Below are positions 12,301 to 36,102 of a DNA stretch of 64,000 nt, piece by piece. The notes under the pieces were generated by a model that saw nothing but the letters and a program-made list of their open reading frames with translations, was not told where the DNA came from and searched no databases. How positions within the stretch are numbered: position 1 is the first letter of the stretch; the number at the start of each line of letters is the position of its first letter. The position numbers were made by a program, and so were the translations under genes. The stretch is from a virus: IMG/VR virus record IMGVR_UViG_3300031578_000009, positions 31,690-95,689 of that record. The stretch is one strand, 5' to 3'.

Positions 12301-13071
12301 ATTTCTGAAGATAAACATGGAGTTAATCTGTTTGGATTAACTAAATATATTGATAGAATTAATGCAACTGTACATGGTGATTATAAGTCTCCAATGATGG
12401 CAAAAAAGAATGCTGCTTTAAGAATGTTAATGTTATTTAAGACATGGTTACCTAAAGCTATTGATCATAGATTTGGAACACAAAGATTAGATAAAGATTT
12501 AATCAATAAAGAAGGATTTTTTGGTAGAGACGTAAAAGGTAGATATTTATCGTTTTGGAATTCTACTACTATGGATGCACAGGAAGTTCTATTTAAAGAT
12601 ACATTAGGAATGATTTTAAAGAGCTTTGTTTCTAAAAAGGCATTTGATAAACTCTCTGATATAGATCGTGTAAATATGATGCGTAATATGCGTGAAATTA
12701 AACATTTGATCGCTATCTATGGTGGATTATTAATGATGAGAGGTTTGCTAATGGATGATGATGATGATAATAAGCCTATATTAAATATTACGCTCAATAT
12801 GCTATCTAAAACTGGTCAAGATATGAGCTTCTTTTTGTCTCCAAACTCAATGAGTCAAATGGTAGATAATATTATCCCAGTATATTCTACAGTTAGAGAT
12901 GGCCAAAGAGCAATAAATAATGCATTTGGATTATTAACTGGAGATGTATTTTATCAAAATGGTCCTTGGAAAGATTCTCCAAAATTAGCAGTTAATACAT
13001 TTAGAATGATACCAGGTTCTTCAGGAGCAATTAAGATGTGGAATATGGGTAATAAGTTTTATCAATATTAA
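9322..13071 (+). CDS. Large virion-associated/ejected cargo protein
   Basis: 1249 aa, largely helical, last gene of the vRNAP block as in other crAss-like phages. No catalytic motif recognised. Confidence 0.6.
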   Translation: MSIICPHKGLKKWSDLVALHGEAKSYFLWNEFEGKVPKEFYSENSNVQVSDKDLEPYYKYSPQEPKVPLIQKVPKVNFNSKFAAGTKLVERQAGEINAKYDEMLPPNSIKRQVANKFFRYAKYDKDGNNSPVYYPFKVSDSWEKNKQYKDAINKLYSEDVVGVDNDGSIVFRPNIENAIYTGGDFGYAVEPVDTDVGTIESPDTKAIDTAIERLNERLALLTRRASKTGGSSQMRANIADLKSQIKKLEENKTTLASNNILERFAKNDAVQIQDNLDNIRENVDTILKADLREEKTKQQMLALMDSLMLNSITIQGWIDIQDFVEHSDPELINELEKISGHYSRLNREWNDLAKTLFTEYANRYSYRDNFSKDELFDAVKDTSIYKSNVLGLSESHIELLKVVDDIIRKSASDINEESFDKKSEVREWNKKLKEDGFSESEVNDIFKQKHNGDWTGNIIGDIDHSYYVKKQELFDEANRTGKYARVNKWLKDNSKSLNLKQLRDIKEGNFESSKNIGYSQEELDIQKELLEKYQEDHDTYQEITEMKYGNSEFAQRELEEWELAHSPFLYAQGEKNSGYKYLIKEKPSINKWGDRRFDKIKNNPTLFGFYNFMKQRFNENNKALGYFNAFEEFYMPEKESNFAKQLMQNKGLLKKVGFLGNSIKNSISQSASETFPAIHIKGKPVKSVPIRMMQNRIPPQIKEDHLLNIINLHTENSLAHKYKTEIEPMCNAATELLNTIKELKPGDKEIENQLANAKKQLEYAKDAGLYDERKSRIEGKTGVKFYTDEEKQKLAELKQQRSNKKITEETFNQEKDKLGKMITGNKLVDSLINYTYIKAMSFPNVITPGVNVLFGINSNLIYASAGVDVDLKTMNKAMIQMMSATARSFGAKNNPELVEKVYAFMEKLHLLGTIHDNEYGSRKSFSEKLTILQEKAEHFNQGSLMLAILQYQKLLDKNGKEVSIFDAYKVQDEKLVWNEELMGKQTNTPNSRVISEDKHGVNLFGLTKYIDRINATVHGDYKSPMMAKKNAALRMLMLFKTWLPKAIDHRFGTQRLDKDLINKEGFFGRDVKGRYLSFWNSTTMDAQEVLFKDTLGMILKSFVSKKAFDKLSDIDRVNMMRNMREIKHLIAIYGGLLMMRGLLMDDDDDNKPILNITLNMLSKTGQDMSFFLSPNSMSQMVDNIIPVYSTVRDGQRAINNAFGLLTGDVFYQNGPWKDSPKLAVNTFRMIPGSSGAIKMWNMGNKFYQY

Positions 13072-17382: not shown

Positions 17383-18020
17383 TATTTATTGTTTTTAAGT
17401 TTCCAATTGTTAAACATGTCAATATAAGATTCCCTAAAAGAATGTTTAGCATCTATTGCAAAATCTATCATTTGCATTTGAGAATACATAGGCTTGTTTA
17501 TTTCAATATATTTTTCAGCAGCTTTTTTAGTTGAGAATTGTACATAACCTAATGGTGGTTTATTTGGATTTCTCCAATCACATTGGTGTGATAGCGCAGT
17601 CCAACCTTTAAGATAAGGCGAATCGCTTTCTACTACATAATAGTAAACATCTCCTTTATAAATACCTACTCCATCTTTAGTTGCAAATAATGGAGTTTTT
17701 GCATGTTTAACATCTTCCATAATATTAATATGTTTAGATTGAGCTATTTGTTCATCGGTATAAGAAGTTAATTCTGAAGGTCTATGCCATCCATCTTCTT
17801 TCTTAGTATAAGTAGTTTTAGTCTGACTATTAAATACTTTAGTTCCAATTGGATATTCAATTATTTCTTCCCAAAATTCTGGATAAAATTCTACTTTTGT
17901 ATGTGGAATTGGCTGATGATATGGATCATCTGGTATATAATCACCATGATTATTTCTATATGTTGCAATTGTTCCAATTTTTGGAGAACCTGGATATTCA
18001 CGTATGAGTTTAAATTTCAT
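17382..18020 (-). CDS. Hypothetical modular phage protein
   Basis: KLIREYPGSP..G, YPEFWEE, PLF.T.DGV.IY.GD and FSTKKAAE segments. Confidence 0.65.
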   Translation of the reverse strand: MKFKLIREYPGSPKIGTIATYRNNHGDYIPDDPYHQPIPHTKVEFYPEFWEEIIEYPIGTKVFNSQTKTTYTKKEDGWHRPSELTSYTDEQIAQSKHINIMEDVKHAKTPLFATKDGVGIYKGDVYYYVVESDSPYLKGWTALSHQCDWRNPNKPPLGYVQFSTKKAAEKYIEINKPMYSQMQMIDFAIDAKHSFRESYIDMFNNWKLKNNK

Positions 18021-18700
18021 TTATTTCTATTTTTAAGTTGCCATTCTTCATTTAATTCATCAACTATCTCAAGTGAATCAATTAATCTATCATATTCTTT
18101 ATCTATATCTACATAAAGTATATTCTTCATATAAGTAACCGAAATACTTTCTTTAGAATAGTCTTTAGTAGGTAATTTGTAGTTTAGTTGAAATAAATAT
18201 ATACTATTAGTGAATACTTGAGATATATGAGTTAAATAAGCGTTTCCAGTAAGATAGATGTAATTATTATTTCCTAATTTTGATAAATGTAATTTGCAAT
18301 AATTGTTGCCTTTTTTAGAAATTCTATACTCTATTCCAGTAATTCTATCCATCACAACAATGTTTTCTGTATTCTCTGTTAATTCTAATAAATCAGTAAC
18401 TTGATGAGTGCAGAATATTTCATTACAAATATCATACTCCCATAATGGATCATATGTAATTGGAATACCAAGTAATTCAGTTTCCTTATTAACCCAATAC
18501 ATTATATCAACATCATATTCATATAAGTCAATAGTTGGATAAGTAACTGCTTTATCCATTCCCATATCAAATAAAGTTAATTGTCCATCATTGTAAGAGT
18601 GCTTTTGACTACTCTTATTTACTGCAATTATCTTATCCAAACTATTGACTAATGATTGTCTTCTTCTAAATATTTCTATTGCCTCTTTTTTGCTATACAT
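18017..18700 (-). CDS. Stand-alone DNA polymerase III alpha (DnaE) C-terminal-like protein with beta-clamp motif and OB fold
   Basis: QLTLF followed by KETELLGIPITYDPL (cf. EKE.LG.Y.S.HPL) and an OB-like segment (ITGIEYRISKKGNNYCKLHL). No PHP or polymerase core. Confidence 0.65.
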   Translation of the reverse strand: MYSKKEAIEIFRRRQSLVNSLDKIIAVNKSSQKHSYNDGQLTLFDMGMDKAVTYPTIDLYEYDVDIMYWVNKETELLGIPITYDPLWEYDICNEIFCTHQVTDLLELTENTENIVVMDRITGIEYRISKKGNNYCKLHLSKLGNNNYIYLTGNAYLTHISQVFTNSIYLFQLNYKLPTKDYSKESISVTYMKNILYVDIDKEYDRLIDSLEIVDELNEEWQLKNRNK

Positions 18701-21265: not shown

Positions 21266-22158
21266 TAAAAGTCTATTTTTATTTCTTCATTCAGTTTTTG
21301 TATTTCTGTTATTATTGGAAATTCTGGTAATCGGCCAATTTCTCGCATGAAATCATCATTGCAATCTAATAAATGTAAAAGTCGATAATTCTTTTGAAAT
21401 TCATAAACTCCTTTTGATCTACCAAGTCCATCAATTGTTTTCTTTTGTCCACTTGGTGTTTCATAGTACATTCCCCATATATATCCATGTAGTATTTCAT
21501 GTGAATCTAATTTATTATTGAATATTCCACAATTCTCAGGGAATGGAGTTATAACATTATCTCCAGCATCTCCAGATATTAATTGAAAACTTTGCCATTT
21601 TAAAGAATCTTCTATTGAAGTTTCAATCCACCAACCTTTAATTACATCTTCCTCTTGAATCTGATACATTACATCTTCTTTAACTAATGCTTTAATATCA
21701 TCTTTTAGCTTATAGGTATAATTAAAATTTTTGCCTGGAATACTTTGTAATAAATCTTTATCTGGAGAAACTAATATTTTATCAAAATATGTTATATCAT
21801 CATCTAAGATATTTTCTTTCAAATCATTATTTATCCAATATGCTATCAAATCATCGGATTCCATTAAATCCATCCATTGAGCATTCCAATTCTCTATTAA
21901 ATAAGATTTAAGTGTTTTAATCCATTTTAATTGAGTTGGATACTTACTTCGATTTGACTTATATAATGGATCAATGTTGTGACGAAAATATTTATCTTTA
22001 CTAATAAAAAATACATAATGAGTTGCTTCTGTTTTAATAAAAATATTCTGGATTTTTTCATCCAGAATATTTATACTTTCCTCTAATGTATTTTTACTAC
22101 TATGATAAACTAGTCCATCTGCATCAACTAATACTAACTTCTTCTGTTGGTCTTGCAT
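21265..22158 (-). CDS. 5'-3' exonuclease (FEN/PIN fold)
   Basis: VDAD, YK.NR, ESDD, DKDLLQ and GD.GDN motifs. Confidence 0.85.
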   Translation of the reverse strand: MQDQQKKLVLVDADGLVYHSSKNTLEESINILDEKIQNIFIKTEATHYVFFISKDKYFRHNIDPLYKSNRSKYPTQLKWIKTLKSYLIENWNAQWMDLMESDDLIAYWINNDLKENILDDDITYFDKILVSPDKDLLQSIPGKNFNYTYKLKDDIKALVKEDVMYQIQEEDVIKGWWIETSIEDSLKWQSFQLISGDAGDNVITPFPENCGIFNNKLDSHEILHGYIWGMYYETPSGQKKTIDGLGRSKGVYEFQKNYRLLHLLDCNDDFMREIGRLPEFPIITEIQKLNEEIKIDF

Positions 22159-22639
22159 ATTCTATAAATTCTTTACTAAGATTTAATTGTTTTTCTTTGT
22201 CATAATCTTCCATAGTAGACTTTAATAAATCAACTCCAAATATATCATTAAGATTTCTCATATTAATAACCTGCTTTCTACTGCTCCATCCAAATTTGTT
22301 AATTGCAGTAATGATTCTTCTATAATCACCACTAGATAAGTTTGATTTATCAATTAAAGCCATTGGAAGTTCTAGATTATTTCTATTATAACAAACAATT
22401 AGTCCCATTGCATCAAGGCTATTACGTATGATCCCATTACCAACATAATACTCTGCTGTTGAATTGTTTGTAATAAGGCTTCCATCTACAGATAATATTT
22501 CTTCAAAGTTGAATTTATCTTTTAAATCATGAACATATCTACGTTTAGTATTAGAATTAATCTGAAAATATTTTCTGGTTTTAAATCCCCTTTGATTAAA
22601 ACAATATGGAATATATTCTTTTGTCTTTTGTATAATCAT
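22124..22639 (-). CDS. Hypothetical protein downstream of E1
   Basis: ORF overlapping both neighbours. Confidence 0.6.
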   Translation of the reverse strand: MIIQKTKEYIPYCFNQRGFKTRKYFQINSNTKRRYVHDLKDKFNFEEILSVDGSLITNNSTAEYYVGNGIIRNSLDAMGLIVCYNRNNLELPMALIDKSNLSSGDYRRIITAINKFGWSSRKQVINMRNLNDIFGVDLLKSTMEDYDKEKQLNLSKEFIEYARPTEEVSIS

Positions 22640-23295
22640 AATACTTCAATTAAAAATGGTTCTCCAAATTCGCTTATTTTAAATGGAAGATTACATATTT
22701 CTTCATTTGCATATTTATTAATTAAATAATTAACCAATACATGAGTAATTCTAGCTCCTATTAGCATTCCAAAATAAGCAGTTTGTTTAAATGTACATGG
22801 TCCATCATCTACTTCTGAATCATCAAATAATGTAGCCTCATATTGTTCTTCCCTACCTTTAGTAACTACATATACTTCATATAGGTTCGCTCTTAATCTC
22901 CCGTCAATCAGCAATTCTCTATTATCCTGTTTACTCCATTTTTCAAATACTTGTTTTCTGGTAGCCATATTATCCAATCCAGTAATCATAATTGGAAAAT
23001 ACTCATTATTATATTTTGAATTGAATTGCCTTATTGAACAATTAGATTGTTCTTGACAATTTTGTAAAATAGAACTAACTTTATATTTACCAATTTGATT
23101 TTTTTTGAAATTTTGAGTTCCAATATTTATAGCTTCAACTTTATCTGGATCATATATCCAATAAGTTGCTGGAACTGTTTTGGTTAATGCAAATAATGCA
23201 TTTGATCCAATTCCACCAGTTCCAACTAATATTATATGCTCATTTGAACTTTTTTCATACCAAGGAGCATCTTTAAATCTATCATTGTATTCCAT
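22636..23295 (-). CDS. ThiF/E1-like adenylyltransferase
   Basis: VGTGGIGS, D.D.VE..N...Q, G.YK, DN..TR and DGR motifs. Candidate catalytic Cys in GPCTFKQT. Confidence 0.85.
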   Translation of the reverse strand: MEYNDRFKDAPWYEKSSNEHIILVGTGGIGSNALFALTKTVPATYWIYDPDKVEAINIGTQNFKKNQIGKYKVSSILQNCQEQSNCSIRQFNSKYNNEYFPIMITGLDNMATRKQVFEKWSKQDNRELLIDGRLRANLYEVYVVTKGREEQYEATLFDDSEVDDGPCTFKQTAYFGMLIGARITHVLVNYLINKYANEEICNLPFKISEFGEPFLIEVL

Positions 23296-24358
23296 AAAGT
23301 AAATTATTAATAGTTATATCAAATATTGGATTAGTTTCAAATTTATCTCTTAAATCTTCCATTTTAGAACATGCTTCAAGGCAATTTTTACGTAAATTAG
23401 AATCTGATCCAAATTCAAAATCATGAATAATTTCTAAATTAGTTTCCATAGCAACTTCGTATTCATCATAAGCAATTTCTTCATCTTTTGATAATTCATT
23501 ATTAATTTTCTCCATTGCATCTCCAATACTTGAATAATATTTACCAGAATTTAATGAAATTAACTTTTTAAGAAAATTATCAACAGTTCCTGTTTTCTTA
23601 TAAGTCTTTGTTAATGTTTGTAAATCACTATTCCCACCTTGATTTAGCCATCCTGCATTATAATCATCATTCCAATCTTCTTTGAAATTATATTGTTTTT
23701 GCCAAGATTGCTGACCAAATGTTTGTACTGGTTTAATTGCTGTTTTTTCTTTTTTAAGTTCATCAATTCTTTTATTCAACCAATTAATACTATTGAATTT
23801 TGTAGGCATATCAATATCTAAATCTCCAATAAGAATAATATCTTCTTCTGTAGATGATTTAATATTAATTAATTTACCATCCGTACCTTTAATGGATGAA
23901 TTATACAATACTTTAGTTTTAGATGGAAATGCAACTTTACATTTATATTTTCTATCAAAACTAACAATCAATGATAAATAATAATTAAAGTTTGTAGCAT
24001 TTGATAATAATTCATCAGAATCGGTGTTACTAAAAAACGCTTGCATATTATGATGCGTATGCACCATACCACTATTACTATTAATTAAATTTTCATTAAT
24101 ATCATAAGCATCCATTACTTTACCAGAATATTCGAATTCAGTATATGTATGACTACCAATATTCATTGGAAATATAAAATCAACTGTAAATTCCAAATCT
24201 TTCATTTGAAACAAGTTACCTTTTGTTAATTTGTAAAATAATATTCCAGACCATTCTGTACTACCAATAGCAGAATGAAGATTATCTATTACATTAATAA
24301 TTTCTTCATCTAATACTATTTTACCTATTGTTCCTAATTCTTGAGTTTTTTTATCCAC
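23282..24358 (-). CDS. JAB/MPN+ metallo-isopeptidase
   Basis: EWSG plus HTHHNMQAFFSNTD (HxH-x7-S-x2-D). Confidence 0.8.
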   Translation of the reverse strand: MDKKTQELGTIGKIVLDEEIINVIDNLHSAIGSTEWSGILFYKLTKGNLFQMKDLEFTVDFIFPMNIGSHTYTEFEYSGKVMDAYDINENLINSNSGMVHTHHNMQAFFSNTDSDELLSNATNFNYYLSLIVSFDRKYKCKVAFPSKTKVLYNSSIKGTDGKLINIKSSTEEDIILIGDLDIDMPTKFNSINWLNKRIDELKKEKTAIKPVQTFGQQSWQKQYNFKEDWNDDYNAGWLNQGGNSDLQTLTKTYKKTGTVDNFLKKLISLNSGKYYSSIGDAMEKINNELSKDEEIAYDEYEVAMETNLEIIHDFEFGSDSNLRKNCLEACSKMEDLRDKFETNPIFDITINNLLYGIQ

Positions 24359-25562
24359 GTTGTTTTAGTTTTTTATTAATTATATATTGTGAAAATTCTT
24401 CTTCTATCTTACTAATAACTTCATTTAATATATCAACATGTATTGATTTTTCTAAATTATTTTCTAAATCATCATCTGGAATTACTATGTTTTTGATATT
24501 TTCTTCCTTAAACATTACTTCAGAACCTGTATCATTATATCTTTTATAAAAATAATTCTGTTCAAAATTTTCAGTTACTGAAATTCCATTCCTATAAGAA
24601 TATAAATAATGTTCAGGAACAATCTCATTTAAAACTTTACGAATATGATCTTTAGAATCATCTGATAATTTAATATCATAATAATCAATATCATTTATAT
24701 TATAAATAAAACTAAAATCATTGATATGCGATAACAATAATAAATAAACTGTATTTGCATCATAAAAATATTCAATGTCTGCTTCTTTAAATCTATTTTC
24801 ATCACATAGTACATTATCAATCTTTCTATATGGAACTCCCTCAATACTTTCCCAAGAAATATATTCTTTTAATAAGTAATAGAATGGAACAATATTTAAA
24901 AAACAATGTTTTGTTGAATTTCTAGTTCTATCAAATACATTTTTTATTTGAGTATCTCCCATACATAAATCATTATCATATGTTCCAATGTGTGAGTGAG
25001 ATAGATGTGAAAATATATAACTATTTCTTAATTCTCTTTCCGACACTGTAGTTCTTGCAAACTGTAAATAATGTAATCTTTTATTACTAAATGTTAATTT
25101 CATATATAAATCTTTCATCTCAAGAGATTGTTCAAATGAATTTGAAATTATTACAGAAGGAATCCATATAATTATACTATATCTATAACCATCTTTGTAG
25201 CTATTATCATTTTGTAAATCTACATATTCTTCACCAAATACTTCTATTGCTTTATTCAAATAAAATGTTCTAAGTTTTTCATCAGACATTTTGTCTACAG
25301 AATCTATGATATTATTTAATTTTATATCATGAACTTCTTTTTTAGTTAATGGTTTAACTTGACTACTTAAATCTTTAATTGAAAATGCAATAGGTGACAC
25401 TTTATTATTTACATCCGAATAATACATTTTATTTGCTACTCTTCCTTCTTTCTTGAAAATATATTGTTTGTTATACATTACATATTTACTTTGATAAACA
25501 TTATTTGGTAATTTATCTAATTCTTTATCAGAAAGTCTTAATATTTCTTCTGGAAGTACCAT
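24351..25562 (-). CDS. Putative prokaryotic E2-like conjugating enzyme
   Basis: YIFSHL...LCMG (His...Cys-x-Gly) and WES.EG.PY, located between the Ubl and JAB genes. Confidence 0.5.
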   Translation of the reverse strand: MVLPEEILRLSDKELDKLPNNVYQSKYVMYNKQYIFKKEGRVANKMYYSDVNNKVSPIAFSIKDLSSQVKPLTKKEVHDIKLNNIIDSVDKMSDEKLRTFYLNKAIEVFGEEYVDLQNDNSYKDGYRYSIIIWIPSVIISNSFEQSLEMKDLYMKLTFSNKRLHYLQFARTTVSERELRNSYIFSHLSHSHIGTYDNDLCMGDTQIKNVFDRTRNSTKHCFLNIVPFYYLLKEYISWESIEGVPYRKIDNVLCDENRFKEADIEYFYDANTVYLLLLSHINDFSFIYNINDIDYYDIKLSDDSKDHIRKVLNEIVPEHYLYSYRNGISVTENFEQNYFYKRYNDTGSEVMFKEENIKNIVIPDDDLENNLEKSIHVDILNEVISKIEEEFSQYIINKKLKQRG

Positions 25563-25577
25563 ACATTAATATTTTTT

Positions 25578-25600
25578 AAAAGAGGGGATTTCTCCCCTCT
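25578..25600 (-). terminator. Stem-loop/terminator between the Ubl and E2 genes
   Basis: agagggga-gaaa-tcccctct followed by ttt on the - strand. Confidence 0.6.
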
Positions 25601-25606
25601 ATTTGG

Positions 25607-26143
25607 TTAAAACAAATTTAATAATTGTTGTGCTTCAAAATCTATGTCGTCTTCAGTCGTTTCATCCAATAATTTTACTTTATTAGTGGCTTTTGGTTCA
25701 GTTTCATTACTCATAACCTTTAAAATATAAGTTCCTGGATATAAATGAATTTCATCTACTTCTTCTGCTTGATTATTGTTTTTTTCAATCGTATCAAGAA
25801 ATTCATTCAGTTCTTGAGTAGTTTTATGAGTATAATTAAATGGAACATCACCACCATTATCTTTATATTCTTTAACTGCATCTCTTGCTTCCCAATAACC
25901 TAATGCTCCTGCTTTTGATTTAGTTGGCATTACAAACATTACTGAATCAATTTCTGGTAATACTGCTTGGTCTACTTCAAATGAAGCTTTAGAAGCTCTG
26001 TCAATTAGCTTTGATGAACTCCAATCAATACCTAATTCAGTAATTTCTTCTTTTAACTCACCTAATGTACGAGCTGATGTTTCTACTTTCACTAACTCAG
26101 TTTGAGTTAATAACTTTAATTTAATTGTTCTTTTTGTTGTCAT
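25607..26143 (-). CDS. Putative ubiquitin-like (beta-grasp) precursor with C-terminal extension
   Basis: ~78-aa N-terminal domain (ARTLGELK, LP, VMFVMP) ending in KSKAG, followed by a ~100-aa extension. Confidence 0.55.
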   Translation of the reverse strand: MTTKRTIKLKLLTQTELVKVETSARTLGELKEEITELGIDWSSSKLIDRASKASFEVDQAVLPEIDSVMFVMPTKSKAGALGYWEARDAVKEYKDNGGDVPFNYTHKTTQELNEFLDTIEKNNNQAEEVDEIHLYPGTYILKVMSNETEPKATNKVKLLDETTEDDIDFEAQQLLNLF

Positions 26144-27162
26144 AATTTGATTTTTAAATCTGTTAACTGATTTTGTAAATAAAAATTAAACTCACGTCCA
26201 CCATCTTTATACCACATGTCTGTGGGGTCTTTTGGTGCACGTAATGGATTATGTATGTATGGTATTTGATAAATTTGAGAAAACTTCTTTGCATATTTTA
26301 TTCCAGCTTCATCATTATCAAAATAAATTACAAGATTTGGATATCTTTTTTTAAGTTTATAGAATACTTTGTCTGGTATCCAAGATCCTTCATTATTTGG
26401 AGCTATTGCTATTGGTTTATTATATATTCTCCAAAATGGCCCTGTATCTTTAAAACTACTTGTTATAAAGCATATATCTCCACTTTTTGGCAATAAATCC
26501 CATCCCTGTACGATTGTATTATCAACATTTGACAACCACTTTCTATAAGATGGTTTTTGTGGAAAATACAACTTCCTTCTGAATATTCCATTATGCCAAT
26601 AATAATCCATACTATATGAATAATCATCACATACATATAATTTTTCATATATATTCTTTTTTTCAGAAGTTAATCTGAAATAAGAAATTGGATTTATATT
26701 AGCTTTAATAAGCATATTTTCAGCCCATGACTGACTACCCCACCATTCTAAATCATGCTGAAGAAGTTCTCTCTTTTTAATTGTTAATATTGTTTTGTAA
26801 TCCTCATATTCAACTGTATGAATTTGTTGTTCTGAATACTTAGTATAATTATTACTTCCTGAACCTCTTAAATACAGATTAAAATCAATATTTATTTTTT
26901 CTAATACTTCTTTAAAAGTTAATCCATATTTTCTACTAACAAATTGGAAACAATTTAAAGCCCCATCTTCACCAAAGTCTTTATATAAATAAGTGCCATT
27001 AAAATATGAGATAACAGCACTTGGATTTGGATCATTTCTAAATTCAGCTTTAAAATGTTTTCCTATCTTTTGAAAATACTTTGAATATTTCTTATATATA
27101 TCTAATGGACTAACTCTTTCAAGAATATTTTCTATTGTTAATAGTCCATTTGTTTTAAACAT
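26140..27162 (-). CDS. dnaG: DNA primase (TOPRIM)
   Basis: FR.DPNPS, KDFG, ITSSFKD, FDNDEAG and KDPTD motifs. Confidence 0.85.
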   Translation of the reverse strand: MFKTNGLLTIENILERVSPLDIYKKYSKYFQKIGKHFKAEFRNDPNPSAVISYFNGTYLYKDFGEDGALNCFQFVSRKYGLTFKEVLEKINIDFNLYLRGSGSNNYTKYSEQQIHTVEYEDYKTILTIKKRELLQHDLEWWGSQSWAENMLIKANINPISYFRLTSEKKNIYEKLYVCDDYSYSMDYYWHNGIFRRKLYFPQKPSYRKWLSNVDNTIVQGWDLLPKSGDICFITSSFKDTGPFWRIYNKPIAIAPNNEGSWIPDKVFYKLKKRYPNLVIYFDNDEAGIKYAKKFSQIYQIPYIHNPLRAPKDPTDMWYKDGGREFNFYLQNQLTDLKIKL

Positions 27163-29744: not shown

Positions 29745-31051
29745 TTTATATGACGGAGCGTAAAACCAACTCATTACGAAGTGTGGGTTGGATGTAAGCG
29801 ACTCCTTTACACTCACATTTTGACATTTTGTTTGTTTTGTATAAATTGGCATAATTTTTGTAATATATAAACTATGTTTAAATCGTTCAAATACAGAATT
29901 TACCCAACCGAGCCACAAAAAGAGCTTATTGCCAAACATATTGGTAGTAGTCGTTTTGTGTTTAATCTTGCGTTGGAAACTAAAAACGCTGCATATATTG
30001 GTAACAAACATAACTACAGCCCTTTCGATTTAATTAAACAATTACCAGAACTTAAAAAAGAATGTCCTTGGCTAAAAGAAGTAAACTCACAAAGCTTACA
30101 ACAATCTATACAAAATATGGATATTGCTTTTAAGAAATTCTTTAAAGGAGCTGGTTTTCCAAAATTTAAGTCTAAAAGAGATAGACAATCTTTTTCAATA
30201 CCACAAAATGTAATAGTTGAAAATAATCTTTTGATAATACCAAAGTTTAAAGAGGGTATTAAAATATTTTTACATAAACCTACACAAGGTATTGTAAAAA
30301 GTGGAACTATCAGTGTAACACCTACAGGTAAATACTTCGTGTCAATACTTTGTGATACTAAAGAAGATATGCCAATTAAGGTTTCTATTAATGAAAACAC
30401 CACAATAGGTATTGACCTTGGAATAAAAGACTTTGCCATTACCTCAGATGGAGAGGTATTTGATAATCCTAAATTTCTTCGTAAAGCACAAAGTAAATTA
30501 AAATATGTACAACGTAAATACTCAAAACACAAAGGCAAGCGAACTAAAAAGAAACTTGCCAAATTACATGAAGATGTAGTAAACAAACGCAAAGATTTTT
30601 TACACAAAGTTTCAACTAAATTAATTCGTGAGAACCAAACGATAGCCCTTGAAACTTTAGCGGTTAAAAATATGGTTAAAAACCACAATTTAGCACAAGC
30701 AATTAATGATGTAAGTTGGTCAACTTTTGTTTCTATGTTGGAATATAAAGCTGGTTGGTATGGTAAAAATATCCTACGAATAGGACAATTTGCACCATCT
30801 TCAAAAACTTGTTCAAACTGTGGGGCTATCAACAATGAACTACAACTAAAAGACCGTGAATGGACTTGTGGCAGTTGTTCTACTGTTTTAGACCGAGATG
30901 TTAATGCTGCTTGTAACATAAAATCATTTGCTTTAAAAAATATTTTGTCTGGGGAACACAGACTTAAAAGTCAAGACGAACTGCCTACATTAGTAGGAGT
31001 AATGACTCTTGAAGCCAAACCCATCGCCTTTGGCGTGGGTGGGTAGTTCAC
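29745..31051 (+). mobile_element. IS200/IS605-family (IS1341-type, TnpB-only) element
   Basis: Left-end hairpin ccaactca...gtgggttgg (~29766-29791). Right-end hairpin acccatcgcc-ttt-ggcgtgggt ending GTAGTTCAC (31051). Inserted against the operon direction. Left boundary is approximate: TTTAT at 29734 or 29745. Confidence 0.8.
29874..31046 (+). CDS. tnpB: RNA-guided endonuclease TnpB
   Basis: KYRIYPT, RFVFN, RuvC D (GIDLG), E (ALETL), D (DRDVNAA) and Zn ribbon CSNC/CGSC, all intact. Confidence 0.95.
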   Translation: MFKSFKYRIYPTEPQKELIAKHIGSSRFVFNLALETKNAAYIGNKHNYSPFDLIKQLPELKKECPWLKEVNSQSLQQSIQNMDIAFKKFFKGAGFPKFKSKRDRQSFSIPQNVIVENNLLIIPKFKEGIKIFLHKPTQGIVKSGTISVTPTGKYFVSILCDTKEDMPIKVSINENTTIGIDLGIKDFAITSDGEVFDNPKFLRKAQSKLKYVQRKYSKHKGKRTKKKLAKLHEDVVNKRKDFLHKVSTKLIRENQTIALETLAVKNMVKNHNLAQAINDVSWSTFVSMLEYKAGWYGKNILRIGQFAPSSKTCSNCGAINNELQLKDREWTCGSCSTVLDRDVNAACNIKSFALKNILSGEHRLKSQDELPTLVGVMTLEAKPIAFGVGG

Positions 31052-31983: not shown

Positions 31984-32053
31984 TTCTAATTATGTCGTTG
32001 TAAATCATAGTAATAATGTTATTTATTACACATTAATGATGTTTATACAATAG

Positions 32054-32209
32054 TTATGTGGCATTAGGCTTCGGTGTATTTATTTCACGCACCATTTCCA
32101 TAATCTTTTCCATAACCTTTGGCACATACTTTTCACTACAAGTTGTTTCTAACCTAATTCCTGCACGTAATAATGGTGCTTCTACTGTAATTTTATATTT
32201 ATTGTTCAT
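32054..32209 (-). CDS. Cassette 1 ORF (51 aa, not in the ORF track)
   Basis: MNNKYKITVEAPLLRAGIRLETTCSEKYVPKVMEKIMEMVREINTPKPNAT. The stop codon is the complement of the GTTA core. Confidence 0.65.
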   Translation of the reverse strand: MNNKYKITVEAPLLRAGIRLETTCSEKYVPKVMEKIMEMVREINTPKPNAT

Positions 32210-32222
32210 AATTAATAACGCC

Positions 32223-32351
32223 ACATAACAATTTATAAAAAATAATAGCAGGTTATGTGGTACTTGTTAGCTGCTACCGCTGTATTTAAGTTTGTAATTA
32301 TTTCAAAGTGTCAGTTTCAAAGCTGCTACTATTCTTATAATAACGTTAGCG
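32223..32351 (+). other. attC1
   Basis: ACATAAC-aat-ttataaaaaataatagcag...ctgctactattcttataa-taac-GTTAGCG. Confidence 0.85.
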
Positions 32352-32561
32352 TTAATTGCTTTTAAACTTTGCGTACAATATTTCGTTGTAATGTCTATTA
32401 CATTCGTACTGATACACAAATTCACTATTATTTTTACACCACATAACGAAATCTATTGCTTCTTTTTGTAGCAACATATCGCTAACACCAGATAAAAACA
32501 ATTGCTTGTTGTATTCATCTATTGTGGTTTGTGCTTTTTTATAATCGTCTTCTGTTATCAT
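32352..32561 (-). CDS. Cassette 2 ORF
   Basis: 69 aa. Start codon lies inside the attC2 loop. Confidence 0.65.
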   Translation of the reverse strand: MITEDDYKKAQTTIDEYNKQLFLSGVSDMLLQKEAIDFVMWCKNNSEFVYQYECNRHYNEILYAKFKSN

Positions 32562-32609
32562 AATTTTGTTTATTAAATTCGCAACTGTGTTTATCTGTAA
32601 TCGTTATAC
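32480..32609 (+). other. attC2
   Basis: CGCTAAC-ac-cagataaaaacaattgc...gcaactgtgtttatctg-taatc-GTTATAC. Confidence 0.85.
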
Positions 32610-32846
32610 GCAAGCTAAAGAACCGAGCAACGTTTCAACCCATGCGTTTGAATCGGCACATCTTTTGAGTTCTTCTTTGTGCGTTTTTGCACAGTCGGTG
32701 CATACTGGTTGGTTTGTTCTCCAATGCCAAGTATTGGTAGGTTGCTTGCAAAAGTAGCAGCGTTCGTACACACCTGTATTTTCGTACATATCTTTAGTCT
32801 CTTTTACTGTTGGTATCATGATATCAAAATTAACGGGCGGTAACAA
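32604..32846 (-). CDS. Cassette 3 ORF, Zn-finger (CYFC...CTDC)
   Basis: Stop lies in the GTTA core. The true start is probably an internal Met. Confidence 0.6.
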   Translation of the reverse strand: MLPPVNFDIMIPTVKETKDMYENTGVYERCYFCKQPTNTWHWRTNQPVCTDCAKTHKEELKRCADSNAWVETLLGSLACV

Positions 32847-32965
32847 TGTATAAAAAACATAGCTGAGCCTGTGGTTAATATTAAGTTTCTATTTCAATTT
32901 TACATTTGTAAGTTATTGTTGTTCAGTATTTCAAAACGCTACGTTTCTTATACTCAACGTTATAG
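32838..32965 (+). other. attC3
   Basis: CGGTAAC-aat-gtataaaaaacatagc...gctacgtttcttatac-tcaac-GTTATAG. Confidence 0.85.
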
Positions 32966-33160
32966 GGCATTATTGCATTGGTCTAACGCATTTCTCATAT
33001 CCTCATCAGCAAGTTCTTTTAACTTATCAGCAATCATATATAAACCTTCTGGTCCATATTTATCTAACAATGCGTTAAAGTTAATTTCTTTATCAACGCA
33101 CTCTAACAAAGTATATAGTGCATTGCTGTCTTGTTTCAATTTATCATCTTCGTAAATCAT
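32960..33160 (-). CDS. Cassette 4 ORF
   Basis: Starts inside attC4 and stops in the GTTA core of attC3. Confidence 0.65.
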   Translation of the reverse strand: MIYEDDKLKQDSNALYTLLECVDKEINFNALLDKYGPEGLYMIADKLKELADEDMRNALDQCNNAL

Positions 33161-33220
33161 AATCTTTTGTATTTTAATTAATATTTGTGATGCAACGCAC
33201 CATATACTCAGCCGTTATGC
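33101..33220 (+). other. attC4
   Basis: CTCTAAC-aa-agtatatagtgcattgc...gcaacgcaccatatact-cagcc-GTTATGC. Confidence 0.85.
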
Positions 33221-33224
33221 GCAA

Positions 33225-33482
33225 TTATTCAGACGCTTCTTCCAAAAATGGATTGACATCTTCGCCAAGTTCTTTACTGCTATGCTTCATTAAAATTTTA
33301 ACAATATCCCCCTTGTTGATTCTTTTCAGGTTGTTAAATTCAGTGTATATTTCTTGGAGTATTACCTGAAATTCAGCATTGCAGTTGCGTATTCCAAATA
33401 AAATTCCATCATTATAACTGCCCATAACAGCACCTAAATCGCTATTGGCGGTTTCTTCTGTATTCAAATTTTCGTGTTCCAT
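33225..33482 (-). CDS. Cassette 5 ORF
   Basis: 85 aa. Starts inside attC5. Confidence 0.65.
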   Translation of the reverse strand: MEHENLNTEETANSDLGAVMGSYNDGILFGIRNCNAEFQVILQEIYTEFNNLKRINKGDIVKILMKHSSKELGEDVNPFLEEASE

Positions 33483-33553
33483 TGTTACTTTATTTTCATG
33501 TTGATAAATTGCGTTTCAAATCGCCAACAGCGTTTAGCTGCGGCACGTCATGG
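33422..33553 (+). other. attC5 (R' core mutated GTT>GTC)
   Basis: CCATAAC-agc-acctaaatcgctattggcg...cgccaacagcgtttagct-gcggcac-GTCATGG. Confidence 0.8.
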
Positions 33554-33588
33554 GCAAGTGTAAGAAATCCCACGCTCACCTGTTTAAA

Positions 33589-33759
33589 TTACTTGGTATC
33601 TGTGTATTTTACATCACCGTTTTCATCTATACTTCTTTCCACCCCATCCGAGTTCCTATCAACGATATTCCCCCACTCATCTTTTGATGTGTAAAAATCA
33701 GTATCTCTGCCGTAATATTCGGCTTCGGAAACAATGTTTCCCCATTCATCTTTTGGCAT
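33589..33759 (-). CDS. Cassette 6 ORF (56 aa, not in the ORF track) with duplicated KDEWGNIV motif
   Basis: MPKDEWGNIVSEAEYYGRDTDFYTSKDEWGNIVDRNSDGVERSIDENGDVKYTDTK. Confidence 0.65.
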   Translation of the reverse strand: MPKDEWGNIVSEAEYYGRDTDFYTSKDEWGNIVDRNSDGVERSIDENGDVKYTDTK

Positions 33760-33787
33760 ATTAAGCCCTCCTATTATAAACGCCAGC

Positions 33788-33915
33788 CCATAACACTAAA
33801 TATAAAATATACGGGTATTGTGCGTGTTTGAACGGTATTACCTTTAATCAAGTGTTGTGTATCGGGATAGGATACCGCTTTTAATCCCGTACATTTCATA
33901 TTTTTAACGTTATAC
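33788..33915 (+). other. attC6
   Basis: CCATAAC-act-aaatataaaatatacggg...cccgtacatttcatattt-ttaac-GTTATAC. Confidence 0.85.
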
Positions 33916-33921
33916 GCTATA

Positions 33922-34134
33922 CTAATTGACAATCGGATGTTCAATTACCTTATAACCCCAGTCAAGTAATATTTCTTTAACTACATACCATTCACCATTA
34001 AATTCCAGTGCATCAATCGTTGCTTGTGGTGCATCACTATGGAATATTACTTTTCTTTCGTTGATAGAATCATTGAAAGTACAGCGTATAACATCGTGTA
34101 TAGCACATTGCTTTTCGTTCTTCGCATTTTCCAT
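33922..34134 (-). CDS. Cassette 7 ORF
   Basis: 70 aa. Starts inside attC7. Confidence 0.65.
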   Translation of the reverse strand: MENAKNEKQCAIHDVIRCTFNDSINERKVIFHSDAPQATIDALEFNGEWYVVKEILLDWGYKVIEHPIVN

Positions 34135-34209
34135 TTTTAATATATTTTAAAGTTTGTAATTCTATTAAAGTTTTGTGTAAGCAATGTGCTATACACGTAT
34201 CCGTTAGGC
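34086..34209 (+). other. attC7
   Basis: GTATAAC-atc-gtgtatagcacattgctt...aagcaatgtgctatacac-gtatcc-GTTAGGC (perfect 18-bp arms). Confidence 0.9.
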
Positions 34210-34215
34210 GTAATG

Positions 34216-34428
34216 CTAAGAAAGCATCCACTTTAAAGCTTCTACTTTACCGTTGGCAATATTCATTCTATTTTGAACTTTGTCTCCATATTCAATACTT
34301 GCCATTTGGCTCATGTTACATAGTTCTTTGTTAAGTTTTTCAGCCAATAACTCTTGGTCTTTAATTTCAATCTTTATTTCTCTTTCTGTTTTCATAACAA
34401 TTTGAATTAAAGCACATACGCCTAACAA
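34216..34428 (-). CDS. Cassette 8 ORF
   Basis: Likely start at the internal MKTERE. C-terminal KVEALKWML. Confidence 0.6.
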   Translation of the reverse strand: MLGVCALIQIVMKTEREIKIEIKDQELLAEKLNKELCNMSQMASIEYGDKVQNRMNIANGKVEALKWMLS

Positions 34429-34549
34429 TATGTATAGTTAATGGCGGTTTTGTGCGTGGTTTAACATTTATTTTACCTTTTTATTTTTGTTTAGTTTGAT
34501 AGTTTTGTGGTCTTAAATCCGCCACGACACCTTACATTCAACGTTACCA
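34420..34549 (+). other. attC8
   Basis: GCCTAAC-aat-atgtatagttaatggcgg...ccgccacgacaccttacat-tcaac-GTTACCA. Confidence 0.85.
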
Positions 34550-34554
34550 CCCAT

Positions 34555-34884
34555 TTAAAGAGGGCGGTGCAAGTCTATGTTTATTGTAATGTAATGGAAA
34601 AAAGTTATCGTTATATAAGCATATCCTTTCATAAAGGAACGCCTGTAATTTATTAACGATACTTCTTTGTATTTACCACGTTTTTCTTCATCCTGTACAG
34701 GTGTCCTACGTTTTATCTTATAATACCATAAATACCAATCTACGCTGCTTTGTGTTTTCTCGAAATAGAATAAACGGGTGGTAACAATAGATAAAATCCA
34801 TTGCTTAAATTGTGTTAATTTATTGGTTTTCTGTTTCATATCAATATTATTTTTAGTTTGAAAATTTGTAATTCTAAATCGCAA
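34555..34884 (-). CDS. Cassette 9 ORF
   Basis: Probable start MKQKT at 34839, inside attC9. Confidence 0.6.
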   Translation of the reverse strand: MRFRITNFQTKNNIDMKQKTNKLTQFKQWILSIVTTRLFYFEKTQSSVDWYLWYYKIKRRTPVQDEEKRGKYKEVSLINYRRSFMKGYAYITITFFHYITINIDLHRPL

Positions 34885-34908
34885 CGTATCTTATCTGAGC
34901 CGTTAGCG
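34779..34908 (+). other. attC9
   Basis: TGGTAAC-aat-agataaaatccattgc...gcaacgtatcttatct-gagcc-GTTAGCG. Confidence 0.85.
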
Positions 34909-35094
34909 TTCATTTGCCAACGCACTCTTACGCACAATCGGAACTACTTTATACATAAAAGTTGCTCCACCTTGTTGCTGTATAAAATCATAACATTCTT
35001 GCTCTGTTCCTTCAAAGCATTCTTGTCCTTCGTCTGGTGTATAAACCAAATCTAATACTTGATGTGTTGCTTCCATTTTATTTAAGTTTTGCAC
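34903..35094 (-). CDS. Cassette 10 ORF
   Basis: Stop lies in the GTTA core. FEGTEQECYDF motif. Confidence 0.65.
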   Translation of the reverse strand: MQNLNKMEATHQVLDLVYTPDEGQECFEGTEQECYDFIQQQGGATFMYKVVPIVRKSALANER

Positions 35095-35114
35095 CGCCCA
35101 CGCTCAAAACGAAA

Positions 35115-35215
35115 CGCTAACAAGCGGTATAGTTAATAAAGGCTGAATTAAGTTTTATTCTTTGATTGGTCGGTAGTGGTCAGCCTTTACTAAACCATAC
35201 CGCCAGCCGTTATAA
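35115..35215 (+). other. attC10
   Basis: CGCTAAC-aag-cggtatagttaataaaggctga...tcagcctttactaaaccataccg-ccagcc-GTTATAA. Confidence 0.85.
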
Positions 35216-35428
35216 ACAAGGCGTAAGCAACGCCCATTTTGTACCGTCTATAAGGTCAGTATATCGCCCGTAAATCAACACTTCTTTCTTTGCAAGTTGT
35301 TCAGGTGGTGGATAAATTAATATTTCATCACCGTAGTTGGGTTTATCTTCTGGGAAAAACGCCCAGTTTATAACAAGCGGTAATACGGCATTGCCTTCCG
35401 CTTCATTGATACTTTTTTCTGTGTTCAT
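35210..35428 (-). CDS. Cassette 11 ORF
   Basis: Starts inside attC11 and stops in the GTTA core of attC10. Confidence 0.65.
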   Translation of the reverse strand: MNTEKSINEAEGNAVLPLVINWAFFPEDKPNYGDEILIYPPPEQLAKKEVLIYGRYTDLIDGTKWALLTPCL

Positions 35429-35501
35429 AGTTTTGTCCTCGTATTTAAGTTATTACTAATTTGATAAATCGGCAACGACCGCATACCGCCAGCCGTTAGC
35501 A
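35368..35501 (+). other. attC11
   Basis: TTATAAC-aag-cggtaatacggcattgcc...ggcaacgaccgcataccg-ccagcc-GTTAGCA. Confidence 0.85.
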
Positions 35502-35507
35502 CCAATA

Positions 35508-35744
35508 TTAAGGAAGTAACTCGCATTCATGAACTTCCCACCATTGATCATAATCAAATGGATATTCTTTTGCAGGAGGATATTCTTTGCATTCATTTTC
35601 CCACTCTTTTAGTTTTTCAGCCTTGTGAAATTCCATAGCCATTTCAGCACCTTTCTTTGTTTTGTGAATACTTATAGTAGTTGCTGCACTATCATGACAA
35701 TCTGAATTATAAAGAAACTCATATACAAATTCTAGTTTTTCCAT
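35508..35744 (-). CDS. Hypothetical protein (position of a 12th cassette lacking its own attC)
   Basis: Follows the R' of attC11. No matching GGTGCTAAC hairpin seen to its right. Confidence 0.65.
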   Translation of the reverse strand: MEKLEFVYEFLYNSDCHDSAATTISIHKTKKGAEMAMEFHKAEKLKEWENECKEYPPAKEYPFDYDQWWEVHECELLP

Positions 35745-35746
35745 AA

Positions 35747-35944
35747 TTAATTTTCTTTATCTAATTGATAATGCCAAAATAAATCACAAGATGTTCCTGT
35801 TAGCTTATTTATAAAAGGAGCTTCTATCCAAGATACAATAATAGATTTATTATTAACTCCTAATATAAATCTCTTACATATATCTCTTTTGGGACAGATT
35901 CCTCTATTCTTATGCTCTCCTGAACAAAGTGTAATATCTAACAT
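35747..35944 (-). CDS. Small Cys-rich phage protein
   Basis: DITLC.G..CP.R..C.RF motif. Confidence 0.65.
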   Translation of the reverse strand: MLDITLCSGEHKNRGICPKRDICKRFILGVNNKSIIVSWIEAPFINKLTGTSCDLFWHYQLDKEN

Positions 35945-36102
35945 AATTCACAATTTTAAAATTATATTCATACGTTTTTTCTTATTTAAGTTCCAATAAA
36001 ATATAAATATATTCCAATCATTAATCTCTATTCTAATCTGAAATATCTTAAAGATTGCAAATATAATTATTCCGAAGCTAATTAATAATAATTTTATTAA
36101 CA

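Follow-up and report, generated by a model that had tools for sequence, protein, structure and literature searches.

Analysis of a 64,000-nt stretch of DNA of a crAss-like bacteriophage (from IMG/VR record IMGVR_UViG_3300031578_000009, 95,689 bases in full; hereafter the window, to whose positions all coordinates refer) indicated that it carries a cassette of four genes which probably forms one operon with replication genes and, as judged from sequences and structural models, encodes a ubiquitin-like conjugation set. All four open reading frames (ORFs) were found on the minus strand directly after a DNA primase gene, in the order ubiquitin-like protein (Ubl), E2, JAB and E1, which bore out the gene positions and the order proposed in a first-pass annotation made from the letters alone. 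The cassette is a real and new virus-borne version of a known type of system, for which we propose a chemistry and possible targets below.

The first gene of the cassette (25607-26143, minus strand) encodes a precursor of 178 residues, in which a ubiquitin-like beta-grasp domain (residues 1-79; 25907-26143) ends in a PTKSKAG tail and is followed by a helical and acidic C-terminal extension (residues 80-178; 25610-25906). In the AlphaFold2 model, residues 1-71 were arranged in the order beta-beta-alpha-beta-beta-beta, with predicted local distance difference test (pLDDT) scores of 83-93 (strands 5-11, 18-22, 45-48, 53-56 and 67-71; helix 27-33), residues 76-78, within the flexible tail that holds Gly79, had pLDDT <50, and helices followed at residues 83-95, 109-125 and 164-177. 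The best Foldseek rows were those of ubiquitin (TM-score to the target ~0.6-0.67, root-mean-square deviation (rmsd) 2.4-2.8 A, probability ~1.0); their E-values were weak, since only 75 of the 178 residues align. When the model was aligned exhaustively with 48,161 chains, ubiquitin, FAT10, ISG15, SUMO, UBX and similar domains filled all 50 of the top 50 places (Z 5.3-6.6, rmsd 2.4-3.0 A over 66-74 residues), with 22-24% identity to ubiquitin; a sequence search against the PDB returned nothing meaningful. The models thereby indicate that the product of 25607-26143 is a beta-grasp protein, as had been supposed in the first-pass annotation from a domain ending in KSKAG with an extension behind it.

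A search of 5.8 billion proteins yielded 77 relatives of the Ubl, of which 31 were aligned. Both K75 and G79 of the PTKSKAG segment were invariant in this alignment. Conservation continued past G79 into the extension, where a helix, a GG.VPFNYT segment and an acidic helix at the C-terminal end are joined by a linker that varies. Since the extension of ~100 residues is itself conserved, it appears from the alignment to be more than a disposable mask. Gly79 (codon 25907-25909; the processing glycine had been numbered Gly78 at first, and the correct position is 79) is internal in the precursor, and the tail that it closes ends in Ala-Gly. Its exposure as a C-terminus would thus be achieved by cleavage.

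The second gene (24351-25562, minus strand) encodes a protein of 403 residues with an N-terminal beta domain, a core resembling UBC, UEV and RWD domains, and a C-terminal alpha/beta domain. The protein matched nothing in Pfam, PHROGs, NCBIfam, PADLOC or PDB sequences, and a word-based search found three relatives only, whereas an exhaustive profile search of 1.84 billion representatives recovered 3,059 (representative clusters) at E <= 0.001. Across 75 homologues, with ~20% identity to the query, N141, Y182, S185, H186, C200, G202, E238, S239, G242 and P244 were invariant. This set contains the motif S185-H186 ... C200-x-G202, by which (as SH...LCMG) the protein had initially been recognized as E2-like.

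The model of the E2-like protein was confident (mean pLDDT 93.1, predicted TM-score 0.83), and its residues 94-234 were composed of a helix, four antiparallel strands, a loop with H186 and C200, and two helices, which is the order of the UBC fold. His186 (codon 25005-25007) and Cys200 (codon 24963-24965) were located between strand 162-174 and helix 205-215, i.e. in the loop after the fourth strand. Foldseek with the full model gave weak rows only (E >= 0.1), but VIA-align, used both exhaustively and on re-examined Foldseek candidates, did reveal a UBC-like core: UEV, E2, RWD and Cap2-E2 chains made up most of one top 50 and nearly all of the other (Z 4.5-6.4, 110-144 residues aligned). The matches included the UEV domains of Tsg101 and Vps23, VPS37A, Ubc8, Ubc9, Ubc6, UbcH5, Ube2W and RWD domains (GCN2), and the E2 domain of Cap2 (7to3_A 7-157), the E2-E1 fusion of the cyclic oligonucleotide-based anti-phage signalling system (CBASS), matched the core at Z 5.3-5.6. 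Z values of this size are middling, and we therefore put weight on the consistency of the lists and on the position of the motif, not on the score. In the ESM Atlas, a largely viral cluster with Pfam Prok-E2_D was among the nearest neighbours of the protein, both by features (0.92) and by structure. When the family was aligned by hhalign with four Prok-E2_D proteins from bacterial genomes, the phage SH...C-x-G-S fell in register with the C-x-G-S of Prok-E2_D, at E 0.028; the hhalign values for Prok-E2_D were 0.33 and 0.028 in all, both with a probability below 2%. Taken with moderate confidence, these models point to an E2-type (UBC-like) domain at residues ~93-240 (24843-25286), with Cys200 as the predicted active site; by sequence models, the protein is not a member of Pfam Prok-E2_D (PF14460)/PRTRC_B. 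The N-terminal beta domain is missing from many homologues, and the domains flanking the core on both sides could choose substrates.

The third gene (23282-24358, minus strand, GTG start) encodes a JAB/MPN+ metalloprotease of 358 residues with a C-terminal helical domain. The full JAMM motif was present, and its residues E35 (codon 24254-24256) and H100-x-H102-x7-S110-x2-D113 (24020-24061) were invariant among 10 homologues, which supports the earlier assignment as an MPN+ protease. Pfam Prok-JAB was matched by 9 of the 10 homologues, every one under the cut-off, and a sequence search against the PDB gave nothing meaningful. We also noticed that the helical C-terminal half of the protein (residues ~200-358; 23282-23760) is conserved, with Pfam DUF6557 matched in 4 of the 10 homologues (best E 2.2e-4).

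The last gene (22636-23295, minus strand) encodes a minimal E1/ThiF-type adenylating enzyme of 219 residues, which passed the cut-off of Pfam ThiF (PF00899; 49.6 bits against 28.1, E 3.7e-13) and has a GxGGxG motif at 23206-23223. In NCBIfam, ThiF was the best model and the PRTRC ThiF model the second, at 1.6e-10. The family profile matched MccB, UBA6, UBA5, SAE2 and UBA3 at ~1e-10, and also Uba1, ThiF, MoeB, Cap2, PaaA and TcdA. R6, G25/G27/G28, D49, K72, D108-N109, R113, R133 and C167 were invariant in 32 homologues, and the nucleotide-binding and adenylation site is intact. Cys167 (codon 22795-22797; context GPCTFKQT) is evidently the free cysteine ascribed to the protein in the first-pass annotation, and its P-x-C-[ST] context recurs in the PRTRC ThiF protein. 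We take it to occupy the position of Cys184 of ThiF and of the P-x-C-T cysteine of eukaryotic E1s, a correspondence that no alignment to a solved chain confirmed; the C-terminal half of the E1, searched alone, had no match among PDB sequences. The enzyme consists of a single adenylation domain, with no CxxC zinc motifs, inserted Cys domain or ubiquitin-fold domain (UFD).

The layout of the genes is compact. In the window genome the stop codon of the primase gene (26140-27162, minus strand; 340 residues, DnaG type, PHROG 12622 DNA primase at 3.3e-30, Pfam Toprim_2) overlaps the start codon of the Ubl gene, the E2-like and JAB genes overlap by 8 nt, and the JAB and E1 genes by 14 nt. The sole intergenic gap in the cassette, of 44 nt, lies 3' of the Ubl gene and contains a terminator-like hairpin (25581-25600, minus strand) with an 8-bp G+C-rich stem (AGAGGGGA / TCCCCTCT), a GAAA loop and a short T-run. 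The hairpin, reported earlier to stand right after the Ubl gene, begins 6 nt past its stop codon, with a folding energy of -14.5 kcal/mol and z = -5.4 in comparison to shuffled sequences. A hairpin and a T-run were found in the same gap in eight of the nine related loci described below (nine of ten genomes, counting the window); z ranged from -3.2 to -5.8 in all nine genomes with such a gap, the sequences differed between loci, and the T-runs of the relatives were mostly longer than that of the window. The exception was cr111_1, which has just 6 nt between the Ubl gene and the next, and no hairpin there. Because its position is conserved across loci, the hairpin is a real feature, conserved in position and not in sequence. 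The simplest reading is a partial intrinsic terminator, which would lower the mRNA of the enzymes relative to that of the tag. In one related locus (L003) the gap measures 405 nt (L003:6550-6954) versus 36-88 nt elsewhere, with the hairpin still directly after the Ubl stop codon, and an extra small gene may have been inserted there between the terminator and the E2 gene.

Relatives of the cassette were visible at the protein level only, as blastn of the region against phage records gave no match. Using tblastn with the E1 we found 74 phage records, including crAss001-type phages of Bacteroides intestinalis, cr111_1 and Flavobacterium phage FpV4, in which the cassette genes carry no annotation beyond 'thiamine biosynthesis protein', 'metalloprotease domain' or hypothetical. 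Nine loci with enough sequence, cr111_1 and FpV4 among them, were compared with the window, and the order Ubl-E2-JAB-E1 on one strand was kept in all nine. The seven closer loci were 56-71% identical to the window phage in the E1, 38-42% in the JAB protein, 44-63% in the Ubl and 25-34% in the E2-like protein; for cr111_1 and FpV4 the identity was lower for all four proteins. The primase gene was directly upstream in several of the related loci, and one to a few genes off in the others. Thus, of the proposed coupling of the cassette to the primase, the overlap of stop and start codons stood for the window genome, but adjacency in relatives proved to be common and not obligatory. When 185,579 bacterial and archaeal species genomes (one each) were scanned with motif patterns of close relatives of the E1 only, we recovered no cellular home but two short contigs of 2.4 kb and 2.9 kb, RZZN01000224.1 (L011) and JAOZLT010000269.1 (L012), from a Gammaproteobacteria and a Gracilibacteria metagenome-assembled genome, respectively; these are probably mis-binned phage fragments. 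Since the scan gave nothing else, this version of the cassette looks viral. A literature search, with subscription journals outside its coverage, found no paper describing the cassette in crAss-like phages.

The closest known systems are PRTRC and BilABCD, and the phage cassette is a member of neither. In the PRTRC reference locus (L015) the order is ParB, protein E, protein C (Prok_Ub), protein F (alpha-hel2), protein B (Prok-E2_D), protein A (DUF2016 and Prok-JAB) and ThiF. As in the phage, the cassette resides on a mobile element (plasmids and integrative and conjugative elements (ICEs) in the case of PRTRC) and runs from a Ubl to E2-JAB-E1; both beta-grasp domains end in a tail of small residues with Lys and Gly (AGAKG in PRTRC, SKAG in the phage) which precedes a long extension, and both E1s are short, with a single adenylation domain, no CxxC zinc motifs and the P-x-C-[ST] cysteine. 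By hhalign, the phage E1 matched its PRTRC counterpart at 1.1e-9, the JAB protein matched PRTRC_A at E 3.4e-4, and the E2-like protein matched at 0.028 with the CxGS motifs aligned; PRTRC_A was the sole JAB-type NCBIfam match of the phage JAB protein. However, the phage cassette has no ParB, PRTRC_E or PRTRC_F (alpha-hel2) and is flanked by the primase gene and an ORF of 171 residues, all four phage proteins are far under the cut-offs of the PRTRC models or undetected by them, and the phage E2-like protein, with its two extra domains, has 403 residues in comparison to ~250. Because the PRTRC and Prok-E2 cut-offs failed and ParB, E and F are missing, we regard the relation, on sequence grounds, as resemblance and not membership, possibly reflecting distant kinship. 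We also noticed that PRTRC protein C (L015:5623-6039, P0352) consists of a Gly-ending beta-grasp domain (...RAAGAKG) and ~70 further residues, so that Ubls of PRTRC, too, may start out as precursors.

In BilABCD (types I and II), an anti-phage defence system, the JAB protease removes the residues behind a conserved Gly of the Ubl, which the E1 and E2 then conjugate (PMC10557695). The order Ubl-E2-JAB(DUB)-E1, in which DUB denotes the deubiquitinase, is identical to that of the phage, and its Ubl is also ubiquitin-like, not ThiS-like, with extra residues behind the conserved Gly (PMC10557695). Whereas the phage E1 has 219 residues and a single adenylation domain, BilD is large: it combines an inactive with an active adenylation domain in tandem, and carries a zinc site as well as an inserted Cys domain; the Bil Ubl tail has at most 9 non-conserved residues, whereas the phage extension has ~100 conserved ones; and Bil is a host defence, whereas the phage cassette is owned by the virus. 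With type II CBASS the likeness is more partial: the Rossmann region of the phage E1, and that region only, matched the PADLOC E1-E2 (Cap2) models (up to 7.6e-7), the E2 domain of Cap2 was among the structural matches given above, and both systems include a JAB protease partner (Cap3). No PADLOC model matched the phage Ubl, E2-like protein or JAB protein. Cap2, however, joins E2 and E1 in one chain and conjugates a CD-NTase by its C-terminus in place of a Ubl, whereas the phage has E1 and E2 as separate genes together with a beta-grasp protein dedicated as the tag, and its cassette contains no nucleotidyltransferase. Iyer et al. (2006) described bacterial E1/E2/JAB/Ubl operons and the Ubl of lambda TAPI, not the phage cassette studied here (PMC1779556). 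The lambda/T1 TAPI and JAB-NlpC (TAPK) proteins resemble it in that a phage-encoded beta-grasp domain has a C-terminal Gly followed by another domain, with predicted cleavage by JAB (PMC1779556); the TAPI system, however, has no E1 or E2 and belongs to the tail module, not the replication module. A tail-assembly role of the TAPI type was rejected on account of the wrong module and the presence of E1 and E2.

On the strength of the predicted folds, the conserved catalytic residues, the order of the genes and the hairpin, we infer the following route, which we regard as fairly likely. The JAB protease would cut the 178-residue precursor after the invariant Gly79, producing a 79-residue tag and a conserved C-terminal polypeptide. 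The ThiF-type E1, which like MoeB and ThiF probably forms a homodimer, would adenylate Gly79 and take the tag onto Cys167, from which it would move on to Cys200 in the UBC-like core of the 403-residue protein. The extra N- and C-terminal domains of this protein could choose the target, making it an E2 and E3 in one, and JAB might also be able to reverse the tagging. The partial terminator would keep the transcripts of the tag (and of the primase) above those of the enzymes. A parallel for such a precursor exists in eukaryotes, which make fusions of ubiquitin with ribosomal proteins. Because the order and place of the cassette are fixed across distant crAss-like and FpV4-like phages, inside the replication module, we think it more likely to play a core part in infection, with tagging of host or phage proteins in the replication phase, than to be an optional anti-defence accessory; the rapid evolution of the E2-like protein would be fitting if its partners vary. 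The fullest form of this proposal is that virus-owned Ubl tagging is a core step of crAss-like infection, in which the precursor is split into the tag and a second working polypeptide, and a one-piece E2/E3 tags host or replisome proteins so that the cell is reprogrammed. We put it forward tentatively, as possible and not as probable. In the interpretation from which we started, the identities of the parts (Ubl, E2-like protein, MPN+ protease, E1 and hairpin) held in all computational tests, while the details of the primase linkage and of the glycine needed correction. Of the outcomes named beforehand as speaking against it, the two open to computation, a product of 25607-26143 that is not beta-grasp and a product of 24351-25562 without a UBC fold, did not occur.

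Several observations weigh against a conjugation pathway of this kind. The tail of the tag ends in Ala-Gly, not Gly-Gly. Where the Bil Ubl tails have at most 9 residues, the extension of the phage Ubl is long and conserved, and for this reason the Ubl protein might work uncleaved. The E1 has no Cys domain, UFD or zinc site, which makes a hand-over of the tag to an E2 hard to picture. For the E2, the case is built on structural scores that are middling (Z <8) and on the position of the motif, and no sequence profile ties the protein significantly to an E2 family: none of the 75 homologues matched any Pfam Prok-E2 model at E <= 1, no PDB sequence was hit, and hhalign with Prok-E2_D gave a probability below 2%. 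Finally, the T-run of the window hairpin is short, with 3-4 T.

The doubts about the E2 lead to an alternative in which there is none: E1, JAB and Ubl would act alone, as in archaeal SAMP/UbaA/JAMM or Thermus TtuB/TtuC, and the 403-residue protein would serve as adaptor or scaffold, or be the chief substrate, its UBC-like core being a non-catalytic domain of the UEV or RWD type. This would agree with the presence of non-catalytic UEV and RWD domains (Tsg101, GCN2 RWD, VPS37A) among the best structural matches and with the fact that the protein matches no E2 sequence family. However, Cys200, His186 and Gly202 are invariant across 75 very diverged homologues and placed where the active sites of E2s lie, and the gene order is the same as in systems with catalytic E2s; we know of no UEV or RWD domain with such a cysteine. 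We consider this alternative unlikely. The other end of the pathway could be questioned as well, if the E1, in adenylating a peptide or the beta-grasp protein, served sulfur transfer or another acyl-adenylate chemistry (ThiS/MoaD-like or MccB/PaaA-like), e.g. to modify a nucleotide or a cofactor, with no protein conjugation at all. MccB, PaaA, TcdA, ThiF and MoeB are indeed among the best profile matches of the E1, and ThiF is its best NCBIfam model, but the E1 is always accompanied by the JAB protease and by the UBC-like protein with its conserved Cys, the cassette encodes no partner such as a rhodanese, ThiG, MoaE or cysteine desulfurase, and the tag is closer to ubiquitin than to sulfur carriers. 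The missing partner enzymes and the ubiquitin-like tag led us to reject the ThiS/MoaD sulfur-carrier reading as such, and chemistry of this general kind seems to us very improbable.

Conjugation enzymes in a phage could also serve in counter-defence, with the Ubl and JAB as a decoy and eraser directed against host Ubl immunity (Bil-like systems or type II CBASS Cap2/Cap3), or with tagging used to disable a host defence protein. Bacterial E1/E2/JAB systems do act in phage defence (PMC10557695). The E2-like protein is the fastest-evolving of the four (25-34% identity versus 56-71% for the E1), as would be expected in an arms race. On the other hand, anti-defence genes are usually patchy accessories, whereas the order and place of this cassette are fixed across distant phage lineages, and for a simple eraser the JAB protease alone would suffice. 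We are doubtful of counter-defence as the main function, and return to the core role in the replication phase as the reading that we favour.

Coding on the minus strand extends across 14-52 kb of the window (G+C 25-29%) and constitutes a replication and recombination module, with genes for an RNA ligase, a DnaB-like helicase, an SF1-type helicase, exonucleases and a Sak4-like annealing protein in addition to the primase. Downstream, the ORF of 171 residues (22124-22639, minus strand) overlaps the E1 stop codon by 4 nt; it had no Pfam or PHROG match, and weak relatives of it follow the E1 gene in the related loci L003, L004 and L008 only. It belongs possibly, not certainly, to the cassette unit. 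Inside the minus-strand module there is also a plus-strand gene of the TnpB/IS605 OrfB type (29874-31046, 390 residues; Pfam OrfB_IS605 8.6e-24, Cas12f1-like TNB and HTH_OrfB), which has the look of an inserted mobile element. The G+C content is 0.33-0.34 at 32001-36000, versus 0.25-0.29 elsewhere in the window. A protein of 227 residues (18017-18700, minus strand) gave a sub-threshold match to the MCM10 OB-fold (E 3.7e-4). Two giant ORFs lie on the plus strand, one of 2,941 residues (2-8827) running off the start of the window and the other of 1,249 residues (9322-13071) with no PHROG or Pfam match.

To our knowledge, experimental proof of ubiquitin-type conjugation among prokaryotes comes solely from cells, and for bacteria mainly from anti-phage defence (CBASS Cap2, Bil), whereas in the phage cassette the entire kit is owned by the virus. 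The cassette is widespread, with the E2-like family alone comprising 3,059 representative clusters and the place among crAss-like replication genes fixed, and it is tractable, being present in cultured phages (crAss001-type of Bacteroides intestinalis; FpV4 of Flavobacterium psychrophilum). Its description would assign a function to genes labelled 'thiamine biosynthesis protein' and 'metalloprotease', may help to explain the PRTRC cassette of plasmids and ICEs, and offers for mechanistic work an E1 of very small size and a probable E2 that has extra domains built in. The crAss-like phages are a lineage prominent in the human gut, and if the proposal is true, they would be the first bacterial viruses shown to run their own complete E1-E2-DUB-Ubl pathway.

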